A stretch of 63,895 nt of DNA from Nitrospirota bacterium (GTDB lineage Bacteria > Nitrospirota > Thermodesulfovibrionia > Thermodesulfovibrionales > JdFR-85), in NCBI GenBank assembly GCA_011051565.1, contig DRKX01000005.1:1-63895 (forward strand), given 5' to 3'. Positions 31,580-37,116 of the stretch are shown one piece after another (within the stretch, counting starts at the first letter, position 1; each line of letters opens with the position of its first letter). The notes below the pieces were generated by a model, which was not told the origin of the DNA, searched no databases, and was given only the letters and a program-made list of their open reading frames with translations. The position numbers and the translations under genes were made by a program.

Positions 31580-31609
31580 TTGCAAAAAACTTTTTGGGTG
31601 TAGTATAAT
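31580..31609 (+). promoter_or_regulatory. Near-consensus sigma-70 promoter (TTGCAA-18 nt-TATAAT) with upstream A9 tract
   Basis: -35 TTGCAA 31580-31585, -10 TATAAT 31604-31609. An A9 run at 31569-31577 abuts the -35. About 70 nt upstream of the cytochrome gene ATG at 31684. Confidence 0.45.
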
Positions 31610-31683: not shown

Positions 31684-32430
31684 ATGAGATATTTTAACAT
31701 TAACCTTAAAGGCGACGGCGGTCGTGGAACGATAAAAGATGTCGATTGCGAGGCTCGGAAAAGGAACGTCTGGCTGGAAGTGTTGGCCGAACAGGCGAGG
31801 TCCCTCGGAGTGTTCGCGATCGTTGTCGCGGTCTTGGTTTCCTTTGGCTTGCCGGCGTGGGCTTCAGAGGACGGTAATGGCGCAGCCGCCGCCGTCAGGG
31901 ATGACGACATCCCGAAGTTCTTCGTGCCGCCGCCGCCGTTCTCCGAGGGTATATTTCCCTGCTCGCAGTGCCACGCCGACATGGTCGTTAACAAGAAGCG
32001 GAGGAAGCTCTACTATCATACCAATATACAGAAGATGTTCAACCATGCGGAGAAGCAGAGGTGGTGCCTCGACTGCCACAACCCCGACGACAGGGACAAG
32101 CTGAGGCTCGCAAGCGGAAGGCTCATCACCTTCGAGGAGTCGTATTATCTGTGCGGCCAGTGTCATGGAACGATCTTCCGTGACTGGAAGGCCGGGGTGC
32201 ACGGCAAGAGGACCGGGATGTGGAACGGGAAGAAGGAGTACCGCCTCTGCGTTCACTGCCACAATCCTCATTCACCGAGGTTCAAGCCTCTCAAGCCCCT
32301 GCCGCCGCCCATAAAGCCCTCTGACATAAAGTACAGGAGGCTGTCTCCGGATGAGATACCGCCAAATCCGTTGAACAAGATTTTTCCACTAAAAACAGAT
32401 TCGAGGAGTAAAGATGCCAAAGGAAATTAA
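31684..32430 (+). CDS. Membrane-anchored/secreted tetrahaem cytochrome c
   Basis: ATG 31684 preceded by AAGGAG. Hydrophobic N-segment LGVFAIVVAVLVSFGLPAWA. Four CxxCH: CSQCH, CLDCH, CGQCH, CVHCH. Confidence 0.8.
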   Translation: MRYFNINLKGDGGRGTIKDVDCEARKRNVWLEVLAEQARSLGVFAIVVAVLVSFGLPAWASEDGNGAAAAVRDDDIPKFFVPPPPFSEGIFPCSQCHADMVVNKKRRKLYYHTNIQKMFNHAEKQRWCLDCHNPDDRDKLRLASGRLITFEESYYLCGQCHGTIFRDWKAGVHGKRTGMWNGKKEYRLCVHCHNPHSPRFKPLKPLPPPIKPSDIKYRRLSPDEIPPNPLNKIFPLKTDSRSKDAKGN

Positions 32431-33337
32431 AGGACATAGCTTATCCAGACCGATCAGCCGCAGGGGGTTCCTGAAGGGTACGGCGCTGGGGCTCGCCTCC
32501 ACGGCGGTGCCCTTCGCCAAGGCGGACGCCTCCTTCTGGGACGCCTACTTCCAGAAGCATTTCAGGGAGATGAACGAAGACGAGCTCAGGGAAGTGATAA
32601 AGAGGCTCGAGAAGGAATACGCCGAGGAGTACGACACGAAGTTCAACATCAAGACCACGAAGGCCATGCCGGGGACGCTCTTCGGCTACGGACTCGACCT
32701 CTCGCGATGCATAGGCTGCAGGAGGTGTGTCTATGCGTGTGTTAGGGAGAACAACCAGTCGAGGGACCCACAGATACACTGGATAACGGTCCTGAGGTTC
32801 AAAAAGGGCGAGAAGTGGATCGACCTCGAGGAGTCGGAGAAGTACTACTATCCTGAGGCGGTGCCAGAGGAGGGCTACTTCTACATGCCGGTGCAGTGCC
32901 AGCAGTGCGAGAACCCGCCGTGCGTCAGGGTGTGCCCGACTCAGGCGACCTGGAAGGAGCCGGACGGAATAGTGGTGATCGACTACAACTGGTGCATCGG
33001 CTGCCGCTACTGCATGGCGTCGTGTCCGTACGGCGCAAGGCGCTTCAACCTTGCAAAGCCGAGGATCCGCAAGGAGGAGCTCAACCCAGAATCGCACTAC
33101 CTCGGCAACAGGCCCCGTTACAAGGGCGTGGTGGAGAAGTGCATATTCTGCGTGCAGAGGACGAGGGCCGGCAGGTATCCCGCATGTGTCGAGATATGTC
33201 CAGTCGGTGCCAGGAAGTTCGGTAACCTGCTGGACCCGAAGAGCGAGATCAGGTACTGCATCGAGAACAAGAGGGTGTTCCGGCTGAAGGAAGACCTGAA
33301 CACGTATCCCAAGTTTTATTACTTCTTTGCGACATAA
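32414..33337 (+). CDS. Tat-exported 4x[4Fe-4S] ferredoxin-type subunit (NrfC/PsrB/DsrO/ActB2-like)
   Basis: 307 aa. Twin-arginine SRRGFLKG. Cys clusters CIGCRRCVYAC, CQQCENPPCVRVCP, CIGCRYCMASCP, CIFC...CVEICP. Confidence 0.88.
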   Translation: MPKEIKGHSLSRPISRRGFLKGTALGLASTAVPFAKADASFWDAYFQKHFREMNEDELREVIKRLEKEYAEEYDTKFNIKTTKAMPGTLFGYGLDLSRCIGCRRCVYACVRENNQSRDPQIHWITVLRFKKGEKWIDLEESEKYYYPEAVPEEGYFYMPVQCQQCENPPCVRVCPTQATWKEPDGIVVIDYNWCIGCRYCMASCPYGARRFNLAKPRIRKEELNPESHYLGNRPRYKGVVEKCIFCVQRTRAGRYPACVEICPVGARKFGNLLDPKSEIRYCIENKRVFRLKEDLNTYPKFYYFFAT

Positions 33338-33361
33338 TAATTCTGAGGAGGAAGGGTTGCC

Positions 33362-34585
33362 ATGTATGCTTTGGTGAGAAACTTTTTCACGGCTTTGAGA
33401 CATATCGCGAGAGGCGGCAAGTGGTATTACATCTGGCTGGCTTTTCTGTCGTTCTTCATTGTTGTTGGGGCTGTCGCATACATCAGACAGCTGCACACCG
33501 GGCTCATCCTGACCGCCATGAGGGATCAGGTCTCCTGGGGGTTCTACATATCCAACTTCACGTTCCTCGTCGGTGTCGCGGCGGCTGCGGTCCTACTCGT
33601 CGTGCCTGCATACGTGTACCACTTCAAGCCGATCAAGGAGATCGTCCTCTTCGGAGAGCTCCTCGCCATAACGGCCATTATAATGTGTATTCTCTTCATC
33701 ATGGTCGACATGGGGAGGCCTGAGAGGGTCTGGCACCTCCTGCCCATCGTGGGGACCATGAACTTTCCGTCTTCGCTGCTCGCCTGGGACGTCGTTGTGC
33801 TCAACGGCTATCTCGCCATAAACTTCCTCATATCTTTTTACGTCCTGTACAAAATGTCGCACAGCAAGGAGTACAGCATCCAGCTGATCAAGCCCTTGAT
33901 CATGATCTCGATCCCGTGGGCCATCAGTATCCACACGGTTACGGCCTTCCTCTACAACGGCCTGTCGGCCAGGCCTTTCTGGAATGCGTCGATCCTGGCT
34001 CCGAGGTTCATCGCATCGGCGCTCTGTTCGGGGCCGGCCCTCATGATACTCATATTCCAGATCATAAGGAAGGTCTCCAAGATAGAGATAGACAACAGGG
34101 CCCTGTTCAAGATAGCCGAGCTGATAGCATACGCGATAGGGCTGAACCTCTTCCTCTTCGGAGCGGAGTTCTTCAAGGAGTTCTATTCCGGAAGCATACA
34201 TCTCGCACCCATGGAGTACCTCTATTTCGGCCTCAAAGGCAAGACGACCCTGGTGCCCTGGATGTGGGCGGCGCTGCTCTTCAATATCACGGCGTTCCTC
34301 ATCTTCCTGAGTCCGCGGGCGAGGGAGAACTTCCTGACCCTGAACATAGGGTGCGTCCTTGTGATAATCGGGGTCTTCATAGAGAAGGGTATGGGACTTG
34401 TCATACCTGGCTTCGTCCCGGGAGTGCTTGGAGAGATATACGAGTACTCGCCGACGTGGACGGAGAAGAGCGTCACCTTGGGCATATGGGCTGCAGGCGC
34501 GATGATATACACGCTGCTGTTGAAATTCGCCGTGCCGATTTACACGGGCGAGCTCAGGTTCATATCCAAGCCCGGCACGGAGTGA
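33362..34585 (+). CDS. NrfD/PsrC-family polytopic quinone-interacting membrane subunit (DsrP/ActC-like size)
   Basis: 407 aa with about 10 hydrophobic segments. Follows the NrfC-like gene by 24 nt, with a GAGGAGGAAGG RBS. Confidence 0.85.
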   Translation: MYALVRNFFTALRHIARGGKWYYIWLAFLSFFIVVGAVAYIRQLHTGLILTAMRDQVSWGFYISNFTFLVGVAAAAVLLVVPAYVYHFKPIKEIVLFGELLAITAIIMCILFIMVDMGRPERVWHLLPIVGTMNFPSSLLAWDVVVLNGYLAINFLISFYVLYKMSHSKEYSIQLIKPLIMISIPWAISIHTVTAFLYNGLSARPFWNASILAPRFIASALCSGPALMILIFQIIRKVSKIEIDNRALFKIAELIAYAIGLNLFLFGAEFFKEFYSGSIHLAPMEYLYFGLKGKTTLVPWMWAALLFNITAFLIFLSPRARENFLTLNIGCVLVIIGVFIEKGMGLVIPGFVPGVLGEIYEYSPTWTEKSVTLGIWAAGAMIYTLLLKFAVPIYTGELRFISKPGTE

Positions 34586-34606
34586 TCCAGGTCTTGAACT
34601 TTCTTG

Positions 34607-34634
34607 TTGACATCCTGGATTGTGTTGCTATATC
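34607..34634 (+). promoter_or_regulatory. Possible internal promoter (TTGACA-16 nt-TGcTATATC) ahead of the Rieske gene
   Basis: Perfect -35 TTGACA 34607-34612. Extended -10-like TGC TATATC 34626-34634. Lies in the 106-nt gap after the NrfD-like gene. Confidence 0.35.
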
Positions 34635-34691
34635 ATTTTTTTACAACGTGCCGATCGAATCAACGTGCCCGGATCGTGTGGGGGTGTATGG

Positions 34692-35102
34692 ATGAAGAGA
34701 CGCAAGTTTTTGAAGTCATTACTCGCCCTGCTGGGCTCTACGACGCTTGTATCCTTTGCCTATCCTCTGGTCAGGTTCATCGCGCCGCCCAGCAAAAAGG
34801 CGGAGGTTAAGCGTCTCAGCCTCAGTAAAGGCGATATCCCTGCAGGTGAGGCCAGAGAGGTCGTATTCAACAACACGCCTGCGATCGTCATCAACAGGCC
34901 GGGTAAGGGTTATATAGCCCTCTCCAAGGTCTGCACTCACCTGGGGTGTCTCGTAGAGTTCAACAAGGAGAAGGCGAGGTTGATCTGCCCATGTCATGCC
35001 GGCGAGTTCAGTCTTGACGGAAAGGTCCTTTCAGGACCACCCCCGAAACCCCTTACAGAGTTTCCACTGCGTGTGGAGGGTGAGTCCATCATAATAGGTT
35101 AG
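34692..35102 (+). CDS. Rieske [2Fe-2S] protein
   Basis: 136 aa from ATG 34692. MKRRKFLKSLLALLG (Tat-like anchor), CTHLGC and CPCHAGEF boxes. Confidence 0.88.
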   Translation: MKRRKFLKSLLALLGSTTLVSFAYPLVRFIAPPSKKAEVKRLSLSKGDIPAGEAREVVFNNTPAIVINRPGKGYIALSKVCTHLGCLVEFNKEKARLICPCHAGEFSLDGKVLSGPPPKPLTEFPLRVEGESIIIG

Positions 35103-35164
35103 GAGAGAGCCGCCGTGCGGGTGTGTGCGGCGCGGACAAAAATTTTTTCCAGAGCGGAGACTTT

Positions 35165-36259
35165 ATGTGGCGAAGGATAAAGAAGGGTCTCGAAGTAAGA
35201 ATCGGTCTTGAGGACCTCGTCAATACTAAGCTGAAGAGGTACACCGTCCCGAGAAACACCAATATATTCTATACCCTCGGTGGAGTTGCACTTGCGGCGT
35301 TCATCATTCAGGCGCTCACCGGGTTCTTTCTCCTGATATACTACGTGCCGCATTCCGACCACGCCTTCAGGAGCGTACAGCAGATAATGACCTCTGTGCC
35401 GTTTGGATGGCTCTTCAGGCTTATGCACGTGGTCGGAGCAAACCTCATAGTCGCGGTTGTCTTTCTACACATGCTCTCGGTCTTCTTCATGGGAAGCTAC
35501 AAGAAGCCGAGGGAGTTGACATGGATCGCAGGCTGGCTCATGCTCCTTGTGGTCCTCACGTTCAGCCTGAGCGGCAACCTCCTGCCGTGGAGCCAGTTGA
35601 GTTACTGGACCACCACCGTGGTCACCGCCATGCCGACTGCATTTCCGTACGTGGGTGACTACATTGCCAATGTACTCAGGGGCGGCGAGTTCGTCTCAGG
35701 AGTGACGTTGAACAGGTTTTTTGCCCTCCATGTGGCGCTTCTGCCCCCGGTTTTCGTCCTCTTCCTGGTGGTGCACATATTCCTCATAAGGAGGATCGGG
35801 CTGTCGTCGCCGCCGTTCGGGGAGCAGACCGCAGGGTCCGGTGAGTGGAACGAATACAGGCATGTGAGCTACCCCGACGGCTATTCCTTCTATCCCTACT
35901 TCGTGCTGAAGGAGCTTTACATGGTGCTGGCGTATCTCGTGGTAATGTTCTTCGTCATCACCTTTGTCCCGACGCTCTTCCTGCCCCAGGGGGCGAACAT
36001 ACCGGCCGATCCACTGAAGACCCCCGCCTACATAAAACCGCAGTGGTACTTTCTCGCCCCATACCAGATGCTCAAGCTCATTCCGAACAAGTTCCTCGGT
36101 ATAAGCATACAGCTGCTGCTGCTGGCGATGTTCATATTGTGGCCGTTCTTTGATACCGGCAGGGAGCGGAACATATTGAAGAGGCCGCTTCTTCTCGTTG
36201 CATTCCTGGCATCGCTGCTTCTGTGGATTGTTTTGACCGTATGGGGGAGGACCTCATGA
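35165..36259 (+). CDS. Cytochrome b (b6-like N-half fused to subunit-IV-like C-half)
   Basis: 364 aa from ATG 35165. NIFYTLGG, YKKPRELTWI, LPWSQ, LRGG align with my recollection of cytochrome b6. His pairs are spaced H-x13-H (helix B) and H-x14-H (helix D). The C-half carries PQWY. Confidence 0.88.
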   Translation: MWRRIKKGLEVRIGLEDLVNTKLKRYTVPRNTNIFYTLGGVALAAFIIQALTGFFLLIYYVPHSDHAFRSVQQIMTSVPFGWLFRLMHVVGANLIVAVVFLHMLSVFFMGSYKKPRELTWIAGWLMLLVVLTFSLSGNLLPWSQLSYWTTTVVTAMPTAFPYVGDYIANVLRGGEFVSGVTLNRFFALHVALLPPVFVLFLVVHIFLIRRIGLSSPPFGEQTAGSGEWNEYRHVSYPDGYSFYPYFVLKELYMVLAYLVVMFFVITFVPTLFLPQGANIPADPLKTPAYIKPQWYFLAPYQMLKLIPNKFLGISIQLLLLAMFILWPFFDTGRERNILKRPLLLVAFLASLLLWIVLTVWGRTS

Positions 36260-37116
36260 GATACTCCGTAATGATACTGTTGCTGTCGGCTGCCGTCTTG
36301 ATTGGAGCATCGATGACCGGTGCGAATTACAGGGACATTTTTGGGAAGGAGTTCCTCACCAAGCCGTGGGCCGGCGGTCAGGTCAAAGAGAGTGTTTGCA
36401 TCAGCTGCCATACCTCCGACATCATAAAGCCTGAATACCGTGACATTCCGCAGGAGTGGAAGCAGAGCTGGCACTACCAGAACAACGTCTCCTGCAAGGA
36501 CTGCCACGGCGGGGATCCCGATGATGCAGAGGCGGCCATGTCGCCCGAGAGGGGGTTCATCGGCACCCCCGACTACGCCGAGATCCCACAGGTGTGCGGC
36601 AGGTGTCATATAGGCATACTCAAGAACTATCTCGAGAGCGGACACGGCAGGGCCCTCAAGGCCTCGAAGACCGGGCCGAACTGTGTGACCTGCCACGGCT
36701 CTCACAATATACAGAAGGCGAGCATAAAGATCATCAACGAGGCACGGTGCTCGAGGTGCCACTCTTATGAGAGGGCCAAGGTCATGAAACAGGCGCTCTT
36801 CCTCACGGAGAAGAAGATAAGGGACATCGACGAAGACCTCAAGCGACTGAAGCGTGCCGGTGTCTTTACCGACGAGGAGGACAAGACCCTCTTCCGCACC
36901 CATGTCGAATATCGCACGCTCTTTCATACGGTCAATGTCGAGCTTGTCAAGAAGAGTACGGACAAATTCGCAAAGAAGCTGGGTCTCATCGAGGACAAGA
37001 TAGATAAGACCTTCAGGGAGCTCGAGTTCCGGAGGAACTTCTCCGCCTTCTTCATGATGTTGTTCACTGTCATGGGAATCGTGGTCTTCATGCTTTCAAG
37101 GACGTACAAGGATTAA
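36256..37116 (+). CDS. Pentahaem cytochrome c with C-terminal membrane anchor
   Basis: ATG 36256 overlaps the cytochrome b stop (ATGA). Signal peptide, CISCH, CKDCH, CGRCH, CVTCH, CSRCH, helical region, then TM FSAFFMMLFTVMGIVVFML. Confidence 0.8.
   Translation: MRYSVMILLLSAAVLIGASMTGANYRDIFGKEFLTKPWAGGQVKESVCISCHTSDIIKPEYRDIPQEWKQSWHYQNNVSCKDCHGGDPDDAEAAMSPERGFIGTPDYAEIPQVCGRCHIGILKNYLESGHGRALKASKTGPNCVTCHGSHNIQKASIKIINEARCSRCHSYERAKVMKQALFLTEKKIRDIDEDLKRLKRAGVFTDEEDKTLFRTHVEYRTLFHTVNVELVKKSTDKFAKKLGLIEDKIDKTFRELEFRRNFSAFFMMLFTVMGIVVFMLSRTYKD

Follow-up and report, generated by a model that had tools for sequence, protein, structure and literature searches.

Cbc4 of Geobacter sulfurreducens (CbcS-CbcT-CbcU, GSU0068-0070) consists of an N-terminally anchored bis-His tetrahaem cytochrome with a linker (CbcS), a four-[4Fe-4S]-cluster protein (CbcT), and a subunit integral to the membrane (CbcU); it has been proposed to connect menaquinone with periplasmic cytochromes, and cbcS mutants grow like the wild type (bioRxiv 10.1101/2025.04.14.648717). 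Cable bacteria and other Desulfobulbales have a 'DsrOhPh-tetrahaem' locus, which is encoded away from dsrMK and combines a DsrO homologue bearing a twin-arginine (Tat) signal, a DsrP-like NrfD homologue, and a tetrahaem cytochrome with all-bis-His ligation. Earlier called a candidate alternative complex III (ACIII), it has been proposed to transfer electrons between the quinone pool and periplasmic cytochromes (PMC13047784). Rieske/cytochrome b complexes have been recorded in Thermodesulfovibrio and, in an unsplit seven-helix form, in Geobacter (PMC3509893), and multihaem cytochromes replace cytochrome c1 in deltaproteobacteria (PMC2825233). Here, we describe a six-gene locus (g1-g6, positions 31684-37116) in a 63,895-nt stretch of contig DRKX01000005.1 from a Thermodesulfovibrionia-like Nitrospirota bacterium (the whole stretch is hereafter termed the window), in which a module of each type lies side by side: a tetrahaem cytochrome, an iron-sulfur (FeS) protein, and an NrfD-family membrane protein (g1-g3, Module A), followed by a Rieske protein, a cytochrome b, and a pentahaem cytochrome (g4-g6, Module B).

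Each module is itself of a known kind. What is new is that the two trios stay linked in a conserved way that tolerates rearrangement, and that traits of the Qo motif and CBS domains accompany this linkage. The reading we favour, with confidence a little short of an even chance, is that g1-g6 encode two separate inner-membrane complexes that cooperate in one menaquinone/periplasmic-cytochrome network as a menaquinone loop. How low-potential, menaquinone-only anaerobes that exchange electrons with periplasmic multihaem cytochromes conserve energy is poorly understood, and the question bears on sulfur cycling, metal respiration, and electron export of the cable-bacteria type. Both module types are widespread in metagenomes, and neither has been biochemically characterized in the form found in g1-g6.

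Composition of the Two Modules

A first-pass annotation of the window had reported six co-directional genes and a list of motifs. Open reading frame (ORF), motif, and Pfam checks recovered all six ORFs, with starts and stops as first placed, along with every listed motif, and gave matches to the Pfam families NrfD, Fer4_11, Rieske, Cytochrome_B, and Cytochrom_B_C (Table 1). A Shine-Dalgarno-like sequence lies upstream of each gene, and the intergenic gaps range from -17 to +106 nt. The annotated composition likewise held: two quinone-linked modules, nine c-type haems (four CxxCH motifs in g1 and five in g6), no molybdopterin subunit or catalytic subunit of another kind among the window ORFs that were scanned, and no cytochrome c1/f gene at the locus. 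Both modules carry full cofactor motifs, and each faces the periplasm and possesses a quinone-interacting membrane subunit.

Table 1. Genes and promoter candidates of the locus, with positions in the window
Feature	Position	Strand	Description
g1	31684-32430	+	tetrahaem c-type cytochrome with N-terminal hydrophobic anchor or signal; CbcS-like / 'tetrahaem' of DsrOhPh loci
g2	32414-33337	+	Tat-exported periplasmic ferredoxin-like protein with four Cys clusters; DsrO/QrcC/PsrB-like
g3	33362-34585	+	haem-less NrfD-family membrane subunit with ~10 transmembrane (TM) segments; DsrP-like
g4	34692-35102	+	Rieske [2Fe-2S] protein with twin-arginine N-terminal anchor; box II CPCHAGEF without 'SY'
g5	35165-36259	+	unsplit 7-TM cytochrome b with b6-like N half and subunit-IV-like C half; Qo motif PQWY
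g6	36256-37116	+	pentahaem c-type cytochrome with N-terminal signal-like segment and C-terminal TM anchor, in place of c1/f
Promoter candidate upstream of g1	31580..31609	+	sigma-70-like, TTGCAA-18-TATAAT, 10/12 matches; consensus match only
Promoter candidate in g3-g4 spacer	34607..34636	+	sigma-70-like, TTGACA-18-TATCAT, 11/12 matches

In Module A, the cytochrome g1 carries its CxxCH motifs at residues 93, 128, 157, and 189, has a single hydrophobic segment (residues ~33-62), and matches Pfam Cytochrome_C7 and Paired_CXXCH_1. Four CxxCH motifs recur in 66 of 67 g1 homologues, and His residues 112, 121, 173, and 196 are invariant; these four extra His residues imply four bis-His haems. The trihaem DsrJ is distinguished by a His/Cys-ligated haem with a conserved extra Cys. 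No conserved extra Cys was found among the g1 homologues, so g1 is not DsrJ-like, and the DsrJ model gave no match to g1. The family has >5000 members annotated as hypothetical, and a sequence search of solved structures returned no significant relative of g1. An AlphaFold2 model built from a 41-sequence alignment was too poor to use, with a mean predicted local distance difference test score of 56 and values <50 over much of the haem domain.

The FeS protein g2 (307 aa) displays the Tat motif ISRRGFLKG and matches Pfam Fer4_11 (3.5e-21) and TAT_signal (1e-3), with the Cys clusters being of the ferredoxin type. It scored 184 bits with the NCBIfam DsrO model (cut-off 200), with the protein aligned in part only, and 146 bits with QrcC (cut-off 400); among solved structures, it comes closest to ArrB, PsrB, and the C-terminal portion of ActB. 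The membrane protein g3 (407 aa, 10 hydrophobic segments, Pfam NrfD 2.8e-38) reached 425 bits with NCBIfam DsrP (cut-off 350) versus 54 with QrcD (cut-off 570), 37 with TtrC, and 21 with NrfD, and the ActC chains of ACIII are its only solved relatives (~1e-13). Proteins 73-76% identical to g3 are encoded by metagenome-assembled genomes (MAGs) labelled Desulfobulbaceae or Desulfobulbales. In the very large g3 and g1 families, most members bear the annotation polysulfide reductase NrfD or hypothetical, and relatives at 73-78% identity are present in Nitrospirota as well as in Desulfobulbaceae. Each of the cytochrome b, g3, and g1 queries gave >5000 database matches. The order g1-g2-g3 is retained in nearly all of 80 g3-centred metagenome loci (g3 identity 56-78%). 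Module A is a conserved, separable unit of an already recognized but uncharacterized kind.

Module B begins with g4, which possesses the Rieske motifs CTHLGC and CPCHAG, with the CxH...CxxH boxes and both disulphide Cys residues (Pfam Rieske 5.6e-14), and thereby provides the Rieske protein of a bc1/b6f superfamily complex. Among solved structures, it is nearest to the Rieske domain of Chlorobaculum (8hn2_A, 8.5e-21), and its twin-arginine start, MKRRKFLK, is a feature that the first-pass list had lacked. Box II reads CPCH[A/G]G.., with Gly at the 'S' position, in all 20 of the commonest family motifs. 'SY' is a signature of high-potential Rieske proteins, and its absence is given as a mark of low- or mid-potential ones in PMC11874023, citing ten Brink 2013. 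According to the same paper, menaquinone is the quinone measured in Thermodesulfovibrio islandicus, and anaerobic Nitrospirota genomes encode the futalosine pathway for menaquinone (PMC11874023).

The cytochrome b g5 (364 aa, seven hydrophobic segments, Pfam Cytochrome_B 3.3e-52 and Cytochrom_B_C 1.1e-16) has haem-ligand pairs H88-x13-H102 and H189-x14-H204, and all four His residues are invariant in 90 homologues. Its NIFYTLGG motif places Thr at the position of the haem-ci Cys of b6, and Thr or Ser stands there in every family motif variant listed. At residue 292, PQWY keeps the position of PEWY and loses the carboxylate. The earlier description of this protein as b6-like holds only in part: among solved structures, g5 comes closest to the unsplit cytochrome b of Aquifex bc1 (6kls_B, 1.1e-67, versus 6e-53 for b6 and 1e-11 for subunit IV), and it falls below the NCBIfam cut-offs for b6 (208 bits versus 325) and for ExtP. 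As expected for the Rieske/cytochrome b superfamily, the two His pairs of g5 are accompanied by an adjacent membrane-anchored c-type cytochrome, g6, the start of which overlaps the g5 stop (ATGA). Of 85 complete g6 homologues, 84 show five CxxCH motifs and all 85 have the C-terminal TM segment. The conserved distal ligands H73, H130, H150, H224, and M95 point to bis-His ligation of four haems and His/Met ligation of the fifth. Cytochromes c1 and f are each anchored by a single C-terminal helix, and for this reason g6 is a plausible topological stand-in for c1/f. A sequence search of solved structures gave no significant relative of g6.

A cytochrome b-centred scan, taking one genome per species, returned 80 loci. 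A Rieske gene immediately precedes cytochrome b in 80/80, and a g6 homologue directly follows it in 78/80, with the remaining two contigs ending within cytochrome b. These Rieske-cytochrome b-pentahaem loci span Nitrospirota, Desulfobaccales, Geobacteraceae/Desulfuromonadales (Geobacterales), Dadabacteria, and Riflebacteria, and the Geobacterales species represented include Geobacter argillaceus, Oryzomonas japonica, and Pelovirga terrestris. Module B is thus a conserved, separable unit of an already recognized kind.

Linkage of the Trios and Accompanying Traits

Linkage was scored in loci with enough flanking DNA to judge. Cytochrome b-centred genomes at ≥54% identity comprised 13 linked and four unlinked cases, all four of the latter being of Desulfobaccales type; at <54% identity, none was linked and 22 were unlinked (Geobacterales and others). 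Among g3-centred metagenome loci, 10 were linked and three unlinked at ≥68% identity, with none linked and 17 unlinked at <68%. Three further loci from the cytochrome b list (L165, L166, and L167) are all linked to an NrfD module, and two from the g1 list (L168 and L169) hold g1-g3 with no Rieske/cytochrome b within 10 kb.

The closest loci to that of the window are L164 (g3 93% identical, same flanks) and L001 ('Bacterium BMS3Bbin07', cytochrome b 82% identical). Because these independent assemblies show the same six-gene order, the order is not an assembly artefact. A search of relatives for this order, suggested by the first-pass annotation, found it kept in L164 and L001 but reversed or convergent in most other linked loci. 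The trios follow the window order in L164, L001, L091, and L020; they are co-directional and reversed in L011, L016, L081-84, L161, and L166; and they converge in L003-5, L009, L012, L014, L017, L018, L023, L085, L093, L096, L099, L103, and L167. With convergence in most linked relatives, the trios cannot be co-transcribed there. Most relatives have two cytochrome c-FeS-NrfD trios, and a NapC/NirT-like multihaem cytochrome as well. In one Desulfobulbaceae MAG, nine co-directional genes (C2-F2-N2-Rieske-cytb-c5-g1-g2-g3) are separated by gaps of 75-112 bp and followed by an MtrC-like cytochrome. On a neighbour-joining tree of cytochrome b, the linked loci fall into two separate clades, one large and of Nitrospirota, the other of Desulfobulbaceae type, with the unlinked Desulfobaccales between them. 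Distant Rieske/cytochrome b genes (26-37% identity) also adjoin g3-like NrfD genes in L131, L134, and L136. A Rosetta-stone test found no gene fusions between the modules; apparent long ORFs were start-codon artefacts in GC-rich DNA.

The six genes are therefore not an indivisible unit, and the two trios are independent evolutionary modules by these comparisons of gene order. Their neighbourhood is nonetheless maintained far beyond chance adjacency, through at least three rearrangements. Such persistence suggests that the trios work together and does not imply a single six-subunit machine. The first-pass annotation had posed a joint six-gene unit against chance neighbours, and neither stands whole: the trios are separable and widely found alone, and their adjacency is not accidental. 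It had also named findings that would speak against a joint unit, and two of these were made in part, as the trios are widely unlinked outside close relatives and as separate transcripts are indicated by convergence and by a promoter-like site between g3 and g4.

Several individual loci merit separate description. A Nitrospiraceae MAG (L003:9556-14367) holds two tandem Rieske-cytochrome b-pentahaem trios, followed by a convergent g3-g2-g1, a second NrfD trio, and a NapC-like gene. A MAG labelled Betaproteobacteria (L016, JBLMWN010000146.1) holds a Nitrospirota-type cluster at 54-77% identity (NapC-like gene, g4-g6, then g1-g3), reflecting either a binning error or lateral transfer. Beside the cluster in a Desulfobulbaceae MAG lies a gene for a 706-aa multihaem cytochrome with an MtrC/MtrF domain (L161:9824-11944), and a 362-aa NapC/NirT-like multihaem cytochrome (L014:8123-9211) is found in many Nitrospirota; neither has a counterpart in the window. 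Both are candidate redox partners.

Two traits track linkage. Among 90 cytochromes b, the Qo motif is PEWY in 74, PAWY in 12, PQWY in three (the window, L001, and L164), and PPWY in one. All 16 cytochromes b without the Qo glutamate come from loci linked to a g1-g3 trio and represent ~3 independent clades, whereas the glutamate was lost in none of ~64 unlinked cytochromes b; PEWY is kept in nine linked loci. The cytochrome b of a close relative (P0004, 79% identical, on a 3.8-kb contig) reads LQWY, so that the usually conserved first Pro is also changed. The second trait is a C-terminal, cytoplasmic CBS-pair domain on the NrfD subunit, present in seven of 97 g3 homologues (L005, L012, L020, L085, L134, L136, and L167). 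All seven belong to loci that also hold Rieske/cytochrome b, and g3 of the window has no such extension. CBS domains in other transporters and channels sense adenine nucleotides, which hints that the NrfD module may be gated by energy status. The patterns of Qo loss and CBS fusion are suggestive of co-adaptation between the modules, with the proviso that both associations comprise few independent events and were counted without phylogenetic correction. Natural Qo variants (PVWY, PDWY, and PAWY) occur in accepted members of the superfamily (PMC4122944).

Two promoter candidates fall within the locus and its upstream edge (Table 1). The one upstream of g1 is conserved in L164, a 93%-related locus. 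The other, in the 106-nt g3-g4 spacer, is the best sigma-70-like match in the region; its -35 and -10 boxes are kept in the window, L164, and L001, with the bases between the boxes diverging. No terminator-like site was found between g3 and g4, and the g3-g4, g4-g5, and post-g6 spacers fold no better than shuffled controls. We infer that each trio has its own promoter, with read-through possible. Two smaller observations concern regulation. In a Thermodesulfovibrionales MAG (L020:859-2042), inspection of the translation by eye revealed a Crp/Fnr-type-looking ORF between the g3-CBS fusion and the Rieske gene, which is possibly a dedicated regulator of the Rieske/cytochrome b trio. The g4-g5 spacer (window:35103-35164) contains a possible 9-bp GC-rich hairpin followed ~10 nt later by A5T6. 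The hairpin may be meaningless, its folding energy being no better than that of shuffled controls (z = -0.57); a role in setting the ratio of Rieske protein to cytochrome b is conceivable.

A Proposed Menaquinone Loop and Its Alternatives

In the cooperative reading, Module A would operate in a Qrc-like manner, with electrons from low-potential periplasmic cytochromes delivered to menaquinone. The path would connect bis-His tetrahaem g1 to four-cluster g2, and g2 to the quinone site of the DsrP-like g3, with protons taken up through the NrfD subunit. Menaquinol would then be reoxidized by a Q cycle at the Rieske/cytochrome b of Module B, and electrons would leave through the anchored pentahaem g6 for acceptors of higher potential, whether periplasmic or extracellular; candidate partners at this exit are the NapC-like and MtrC-like cytochromes of relatives. 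Together, the modules would constitute a periplasm-to-periplasm menaquinone loop that builds proton-motive force. Low-potential working is suggested by a Rieske protein that lacks 'SY' and by the menaquinone of Thermodesulfovibrio islandicus and the futalosine pathway of anaerobic Nitrospirota.

Several considerations weigh against this proposal. The direction of electron flow in either module is inferred, not readable from sequence. Neither trio requires the other, because each occurs alone in many genomes, and the linkage statistics, based on tblastn hits and a neighbour-joining tree, are not phylogenetically independent. The loss of the Qo glutamate could instead reflect Qo chemistry that is altered or runs in reverse. 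The window ORFs that were scanned include no enzyme that would serve as donor or acceptor. A search of the window for the second NrfD trio and the NapC-like cytochrome of most relatives found neither, so the window may hold a reduced form of the cluster. Lastly, no RNA runs holding the region were found among sequencing runs.

The main rival, which we regard as unlikely but serious, treats the modules as parallel alternative menaquinol oxidases for different acceptor potentials, comparable to ImcH, CbcL, and CbcBA of Geobacter. The Rieske/cytochrome b module would function at high acceptor potential and the NrfD module near the thermodynamic limit, both within an electron-export gene island. 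Geobacter inner-membrane oxidoreductases have been assigned to potential windows (bioRxiv 10.1101/2025.04.14.648717), and a division of labour of this sort is consistent with a separate conserved promoter-like site for each trio, with the separate transcripts that convergence forces in most relatives, with the occurrence of each module alone elsewhere, with the MtrC-like and NapC-like multihaem cytochromes that adjoin the cluster in relatives, and with the Crp/Fnr-like regulator gene between the modules in L020. However, redundancy alone leaves unexplained why Qo-glutamate loss and CBS fusions track linkage, the tightly spaced nine-gene arrangement of Desulfobulbaceae-type loci (co-directional, 75-112 bp gaps) suggests co-expression, and the all-bis-His haems and FeS clusters of Module A fit menaquinone reduction equally well. 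At the opposite extreme from independent oxidases lies one physical supercomplex of the six proteins (plus the second NrfD trio where there is one), in which the pentahaem and tetrahaem cytochromes wire the Rieske protein to the FeS/NrfD quinone site. The conservation of the neighbourhood across rearrangements would suit such an assembly, as would the tethering of both cytochromes, which holds them near the membrane surface, and the position of the Rieske/cytochrome b trio between two NrfD trios in Desulfobulbaceae-type and some Nitrospirota loci. Yet a wire from Qo to another menaquinone site performs no net redox reaction unless a partner from outside or another quinone species takes part, the modules are unfused and often solitary, and convergent, separately transcribed arrangements are the commonest; we give this assembly only a slim chance. 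A combined scenario is also quite unlikely in our judgement: a hitherto unreported, laterally mobile respiratory super-cluster of Thermodesulfovibrionia-type Nitrospirota and some Desulfobulbaceae, made up of the Rieske/cytb-pentahaem trio, one or two tetrahaem-FeS-NrfD trios, and often a NapC-like cytochrome, would have become co-adapted (through Qo-glutamate loss and CBS-NrfD fusion) into a coupled loop or supercomplex with a non-standard, possibly reversed or gated, Q cycle.

Altered or reversed Qo chemistry may also be considered in its own right, with proton-motive force driving the reduction of menaquinone from mid-potential periplasmic donors in linked loci and the NrfD module running in the other direction. 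The confinement of all 16 carboxylate-free motifs (PQWY, PAWY, and PPWY) to linked loci, with none among ~64 unlinked ones, speaks for this proposal. Beta- and gammaproteobacterial bc1 complexes are, however, ordinary forward quinol oxidases, and nine linked loci retain PEWY, with only about three independent losses of the glutamate. PVWY is the usual Qo motif of those proteobacterial bc1 complexes, and carboxylate-free motifs have been associated with acidophiles and an APWY clade with proposed reverse operation, with PQWY itself not discussed (PMC4122944). We consider reversal in linked loci improbable. Equally hard to credit is incidental adjacency, with unrelated complexes sharing a region or being co-transferred, a variant of which makes g1-g3 the JOP part of DsrMKJOP. 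Each module is indeed autonomous and widespread, the 73-76% identity of g3 between Nitrospirota and Desulfobulbaceae suggests lateral transfer of the region, and g3 exceeds the NCBIfam DsrP cut-off. Against chance, the adjacency survives three rearrangements and is seen in two separate cytochrome b clades, and the distant Rieske/cytochrome b genes of L131, L134, and L136 lie beside g3-like NrfD genes as well. Against the Dsr variant, no dsrM/dsrK-like genes were present among the window ORFs scanned or the annotated flanks of the loci examined, and g1, with its four bis-His haems, lacks a conserved extra Cys and does not match the DsrJ model.

The cooperative loop remains our preferred account. 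The linkage, the Qo losses, and the CBS fusions together provide a concrete, testable hypothesis, namely, a functional pairing of quinone modules of the NrfD type with those of the Rieske type. Such a pairing, if real, would amount to a compact respiratory chain with both entry and exit and would supply a functional context for the orphan Cbc4 and DsrOhPh-tetrahaem complexes.

Surroundings and Described Relatives

Directly upstream of the locus, on the reverse strand (window:24268-29663 (-)), synteny with L164 identifies genes for uroporphyrinogen methyltransferase/synthase, porphobilinogen deaminase, and glutamyl-tRNA reductase; a gene of the CcsA type for cytochrome c assembly and one of ~260 aa with no annotation lie there as well. 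This neighbourhood of haem biosynthesis and cytochrome c assembly thematically suits a locus encoding nine haems. A motA/motB-like stator pair (window:29756-31427), also kept in L164, lies immediately upstream of g1. No other flagellar genes were seen among the window ORFs looked at, and the pair may be an orphan stator or a Tol/Exb-like energizer. Downstream of g6, aroC, aroK, and a sodium symporter gene were assigned by L164 synteny. The ORFs scanned elsewhere in the window are housekeeping genes (DnaG, RpoD, FabH, PlsX, a pyruvate:ferredoxin oxidoreductase subunit, tryptophan and lipid-A biosynthesis enzymes, and similar). The cytochrome b relatives are labelled Nitrospirota or Thermodesulfovibrionales, and several sequencing runs holding the locus are labelled hydrothermal-vent metagenome; the runs holding the region look like DNA runs.

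The first-pass annotation had pointed to Geobacter Cbc clusters as the nearest comparison, which proved apt for Module A: compared by description, Cbc4 has the same three-part architecture, and so does the DsrOhPh-tetrahaem locus. In g1-g3, the bis-His tetrahaem cytochrome, the Tat-exported four-cluster FeS protein, and the haem-less NrfD protein that characterize both systems are encoded together and apart from dsrMK. Cbc4 differs in not being reported beside Rieske/cytochrome b, an adjacency that is likewise not described for the DsrOhPh-tetrahaem locus, and the small TMH1 gene, unique to cable bacteria, is absent at g1-g3 (PMC13047784).

QrcABCD and ACIII (ActABCDEF) resemble g1-g3 in combining a multihaem cytochrome of the periplasm with an FeS protein of four clusters and an NrfD-type quinone subunit that lacks haem. 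Qrc is described as an electrogenic cytochrome c3:menaquinone oxidoreductase (PMC6303296, PMC13059093). Assignment of g1-g3 to Qrc was rejected, as there is no molybdopterin-like QrcB and the scores with the QrcC and QrcD models fall well short of the cut-offs; Qrc further differs in its hexahaem QrcA, compared with the tetrahaem g1. ACIII was rejected as well, given that the molybdopterin-like ActB domain is missing (g2 comprises the FeS part alone), as are genes like ActD and the monohaem ActE, and that the window has one NrfD gene. ACIII has two NrfD-like subunits (ActC and ActF), and relatives of the window, unlike the window itself, hold two NrfD trios. As for DsrMKJOP, g3 qualifies as a DsrP-type subunit (425 versus 350 bits), but a canonical DsrJOP was rejected because dsrMK is lacking and g1 is not DsrJ-like: neither dsrM nor dsrK flanks g1-g3 in the window, L161, L164, L168, or L169.

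Module B resembles the Rieske/cytochrome b complexes of anaerobes in which a multihaem cytochrome stands in place of c1/f. Geobacterales loci hold a trio of the g4-g6 type, with cytochromes b 44-49% identical; particular to the g4-g6 lineage are PQWY in g5, compared with the PEWY of those complexes, and the linkage to an NrfD module. No purified member of this pentahaem subtype is reported in the accessible literature. Cytochrome b6f and the 'green clade' share with g5 the x14 His spacing of helix D, a total of seven helices, and a subunit-IV-like C half. In contrast to g4-g6, cytochrome b6f comprises split b6 and subunit IV, a haem-ci Cys, and cytochrome f; identification of g4-g6 as b6f was rejected because its cytochrome b is unsplit, the ci Cys and cytochrome f are absent, and the b6 hidden Markov model scores below cut-off.

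For the locus as a whole, a literature search found no characterized six-subunit complex of the g1-g6 kind, in agreement with the first-pass annotation. No published description of the trio linkage was found in full-text searches, although some key reviews lie outside their coverage and an earlier description may exist. A parallel at the level of gene content comes from Methanoperedenaceae. These genomes differ in being archaeal and in having no close sequence relation to the window, and the cluster types are listed as separate groups 1-5 in a passage that makes no mention of adjacency (PMC7327174). They nevertheless contain both bc-type and NrfD-FeS-multihaem-type clusters, which have been interpreted as paths out of the quinone pool towards multihaem cytochromes (PMC7327174). 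A role as menaquinone:cytochrome c oxidoreductase has been put forward for both module types (PMC7327174; PMC13047784; bioRxiv 10.1101/2025.04.14.648717).

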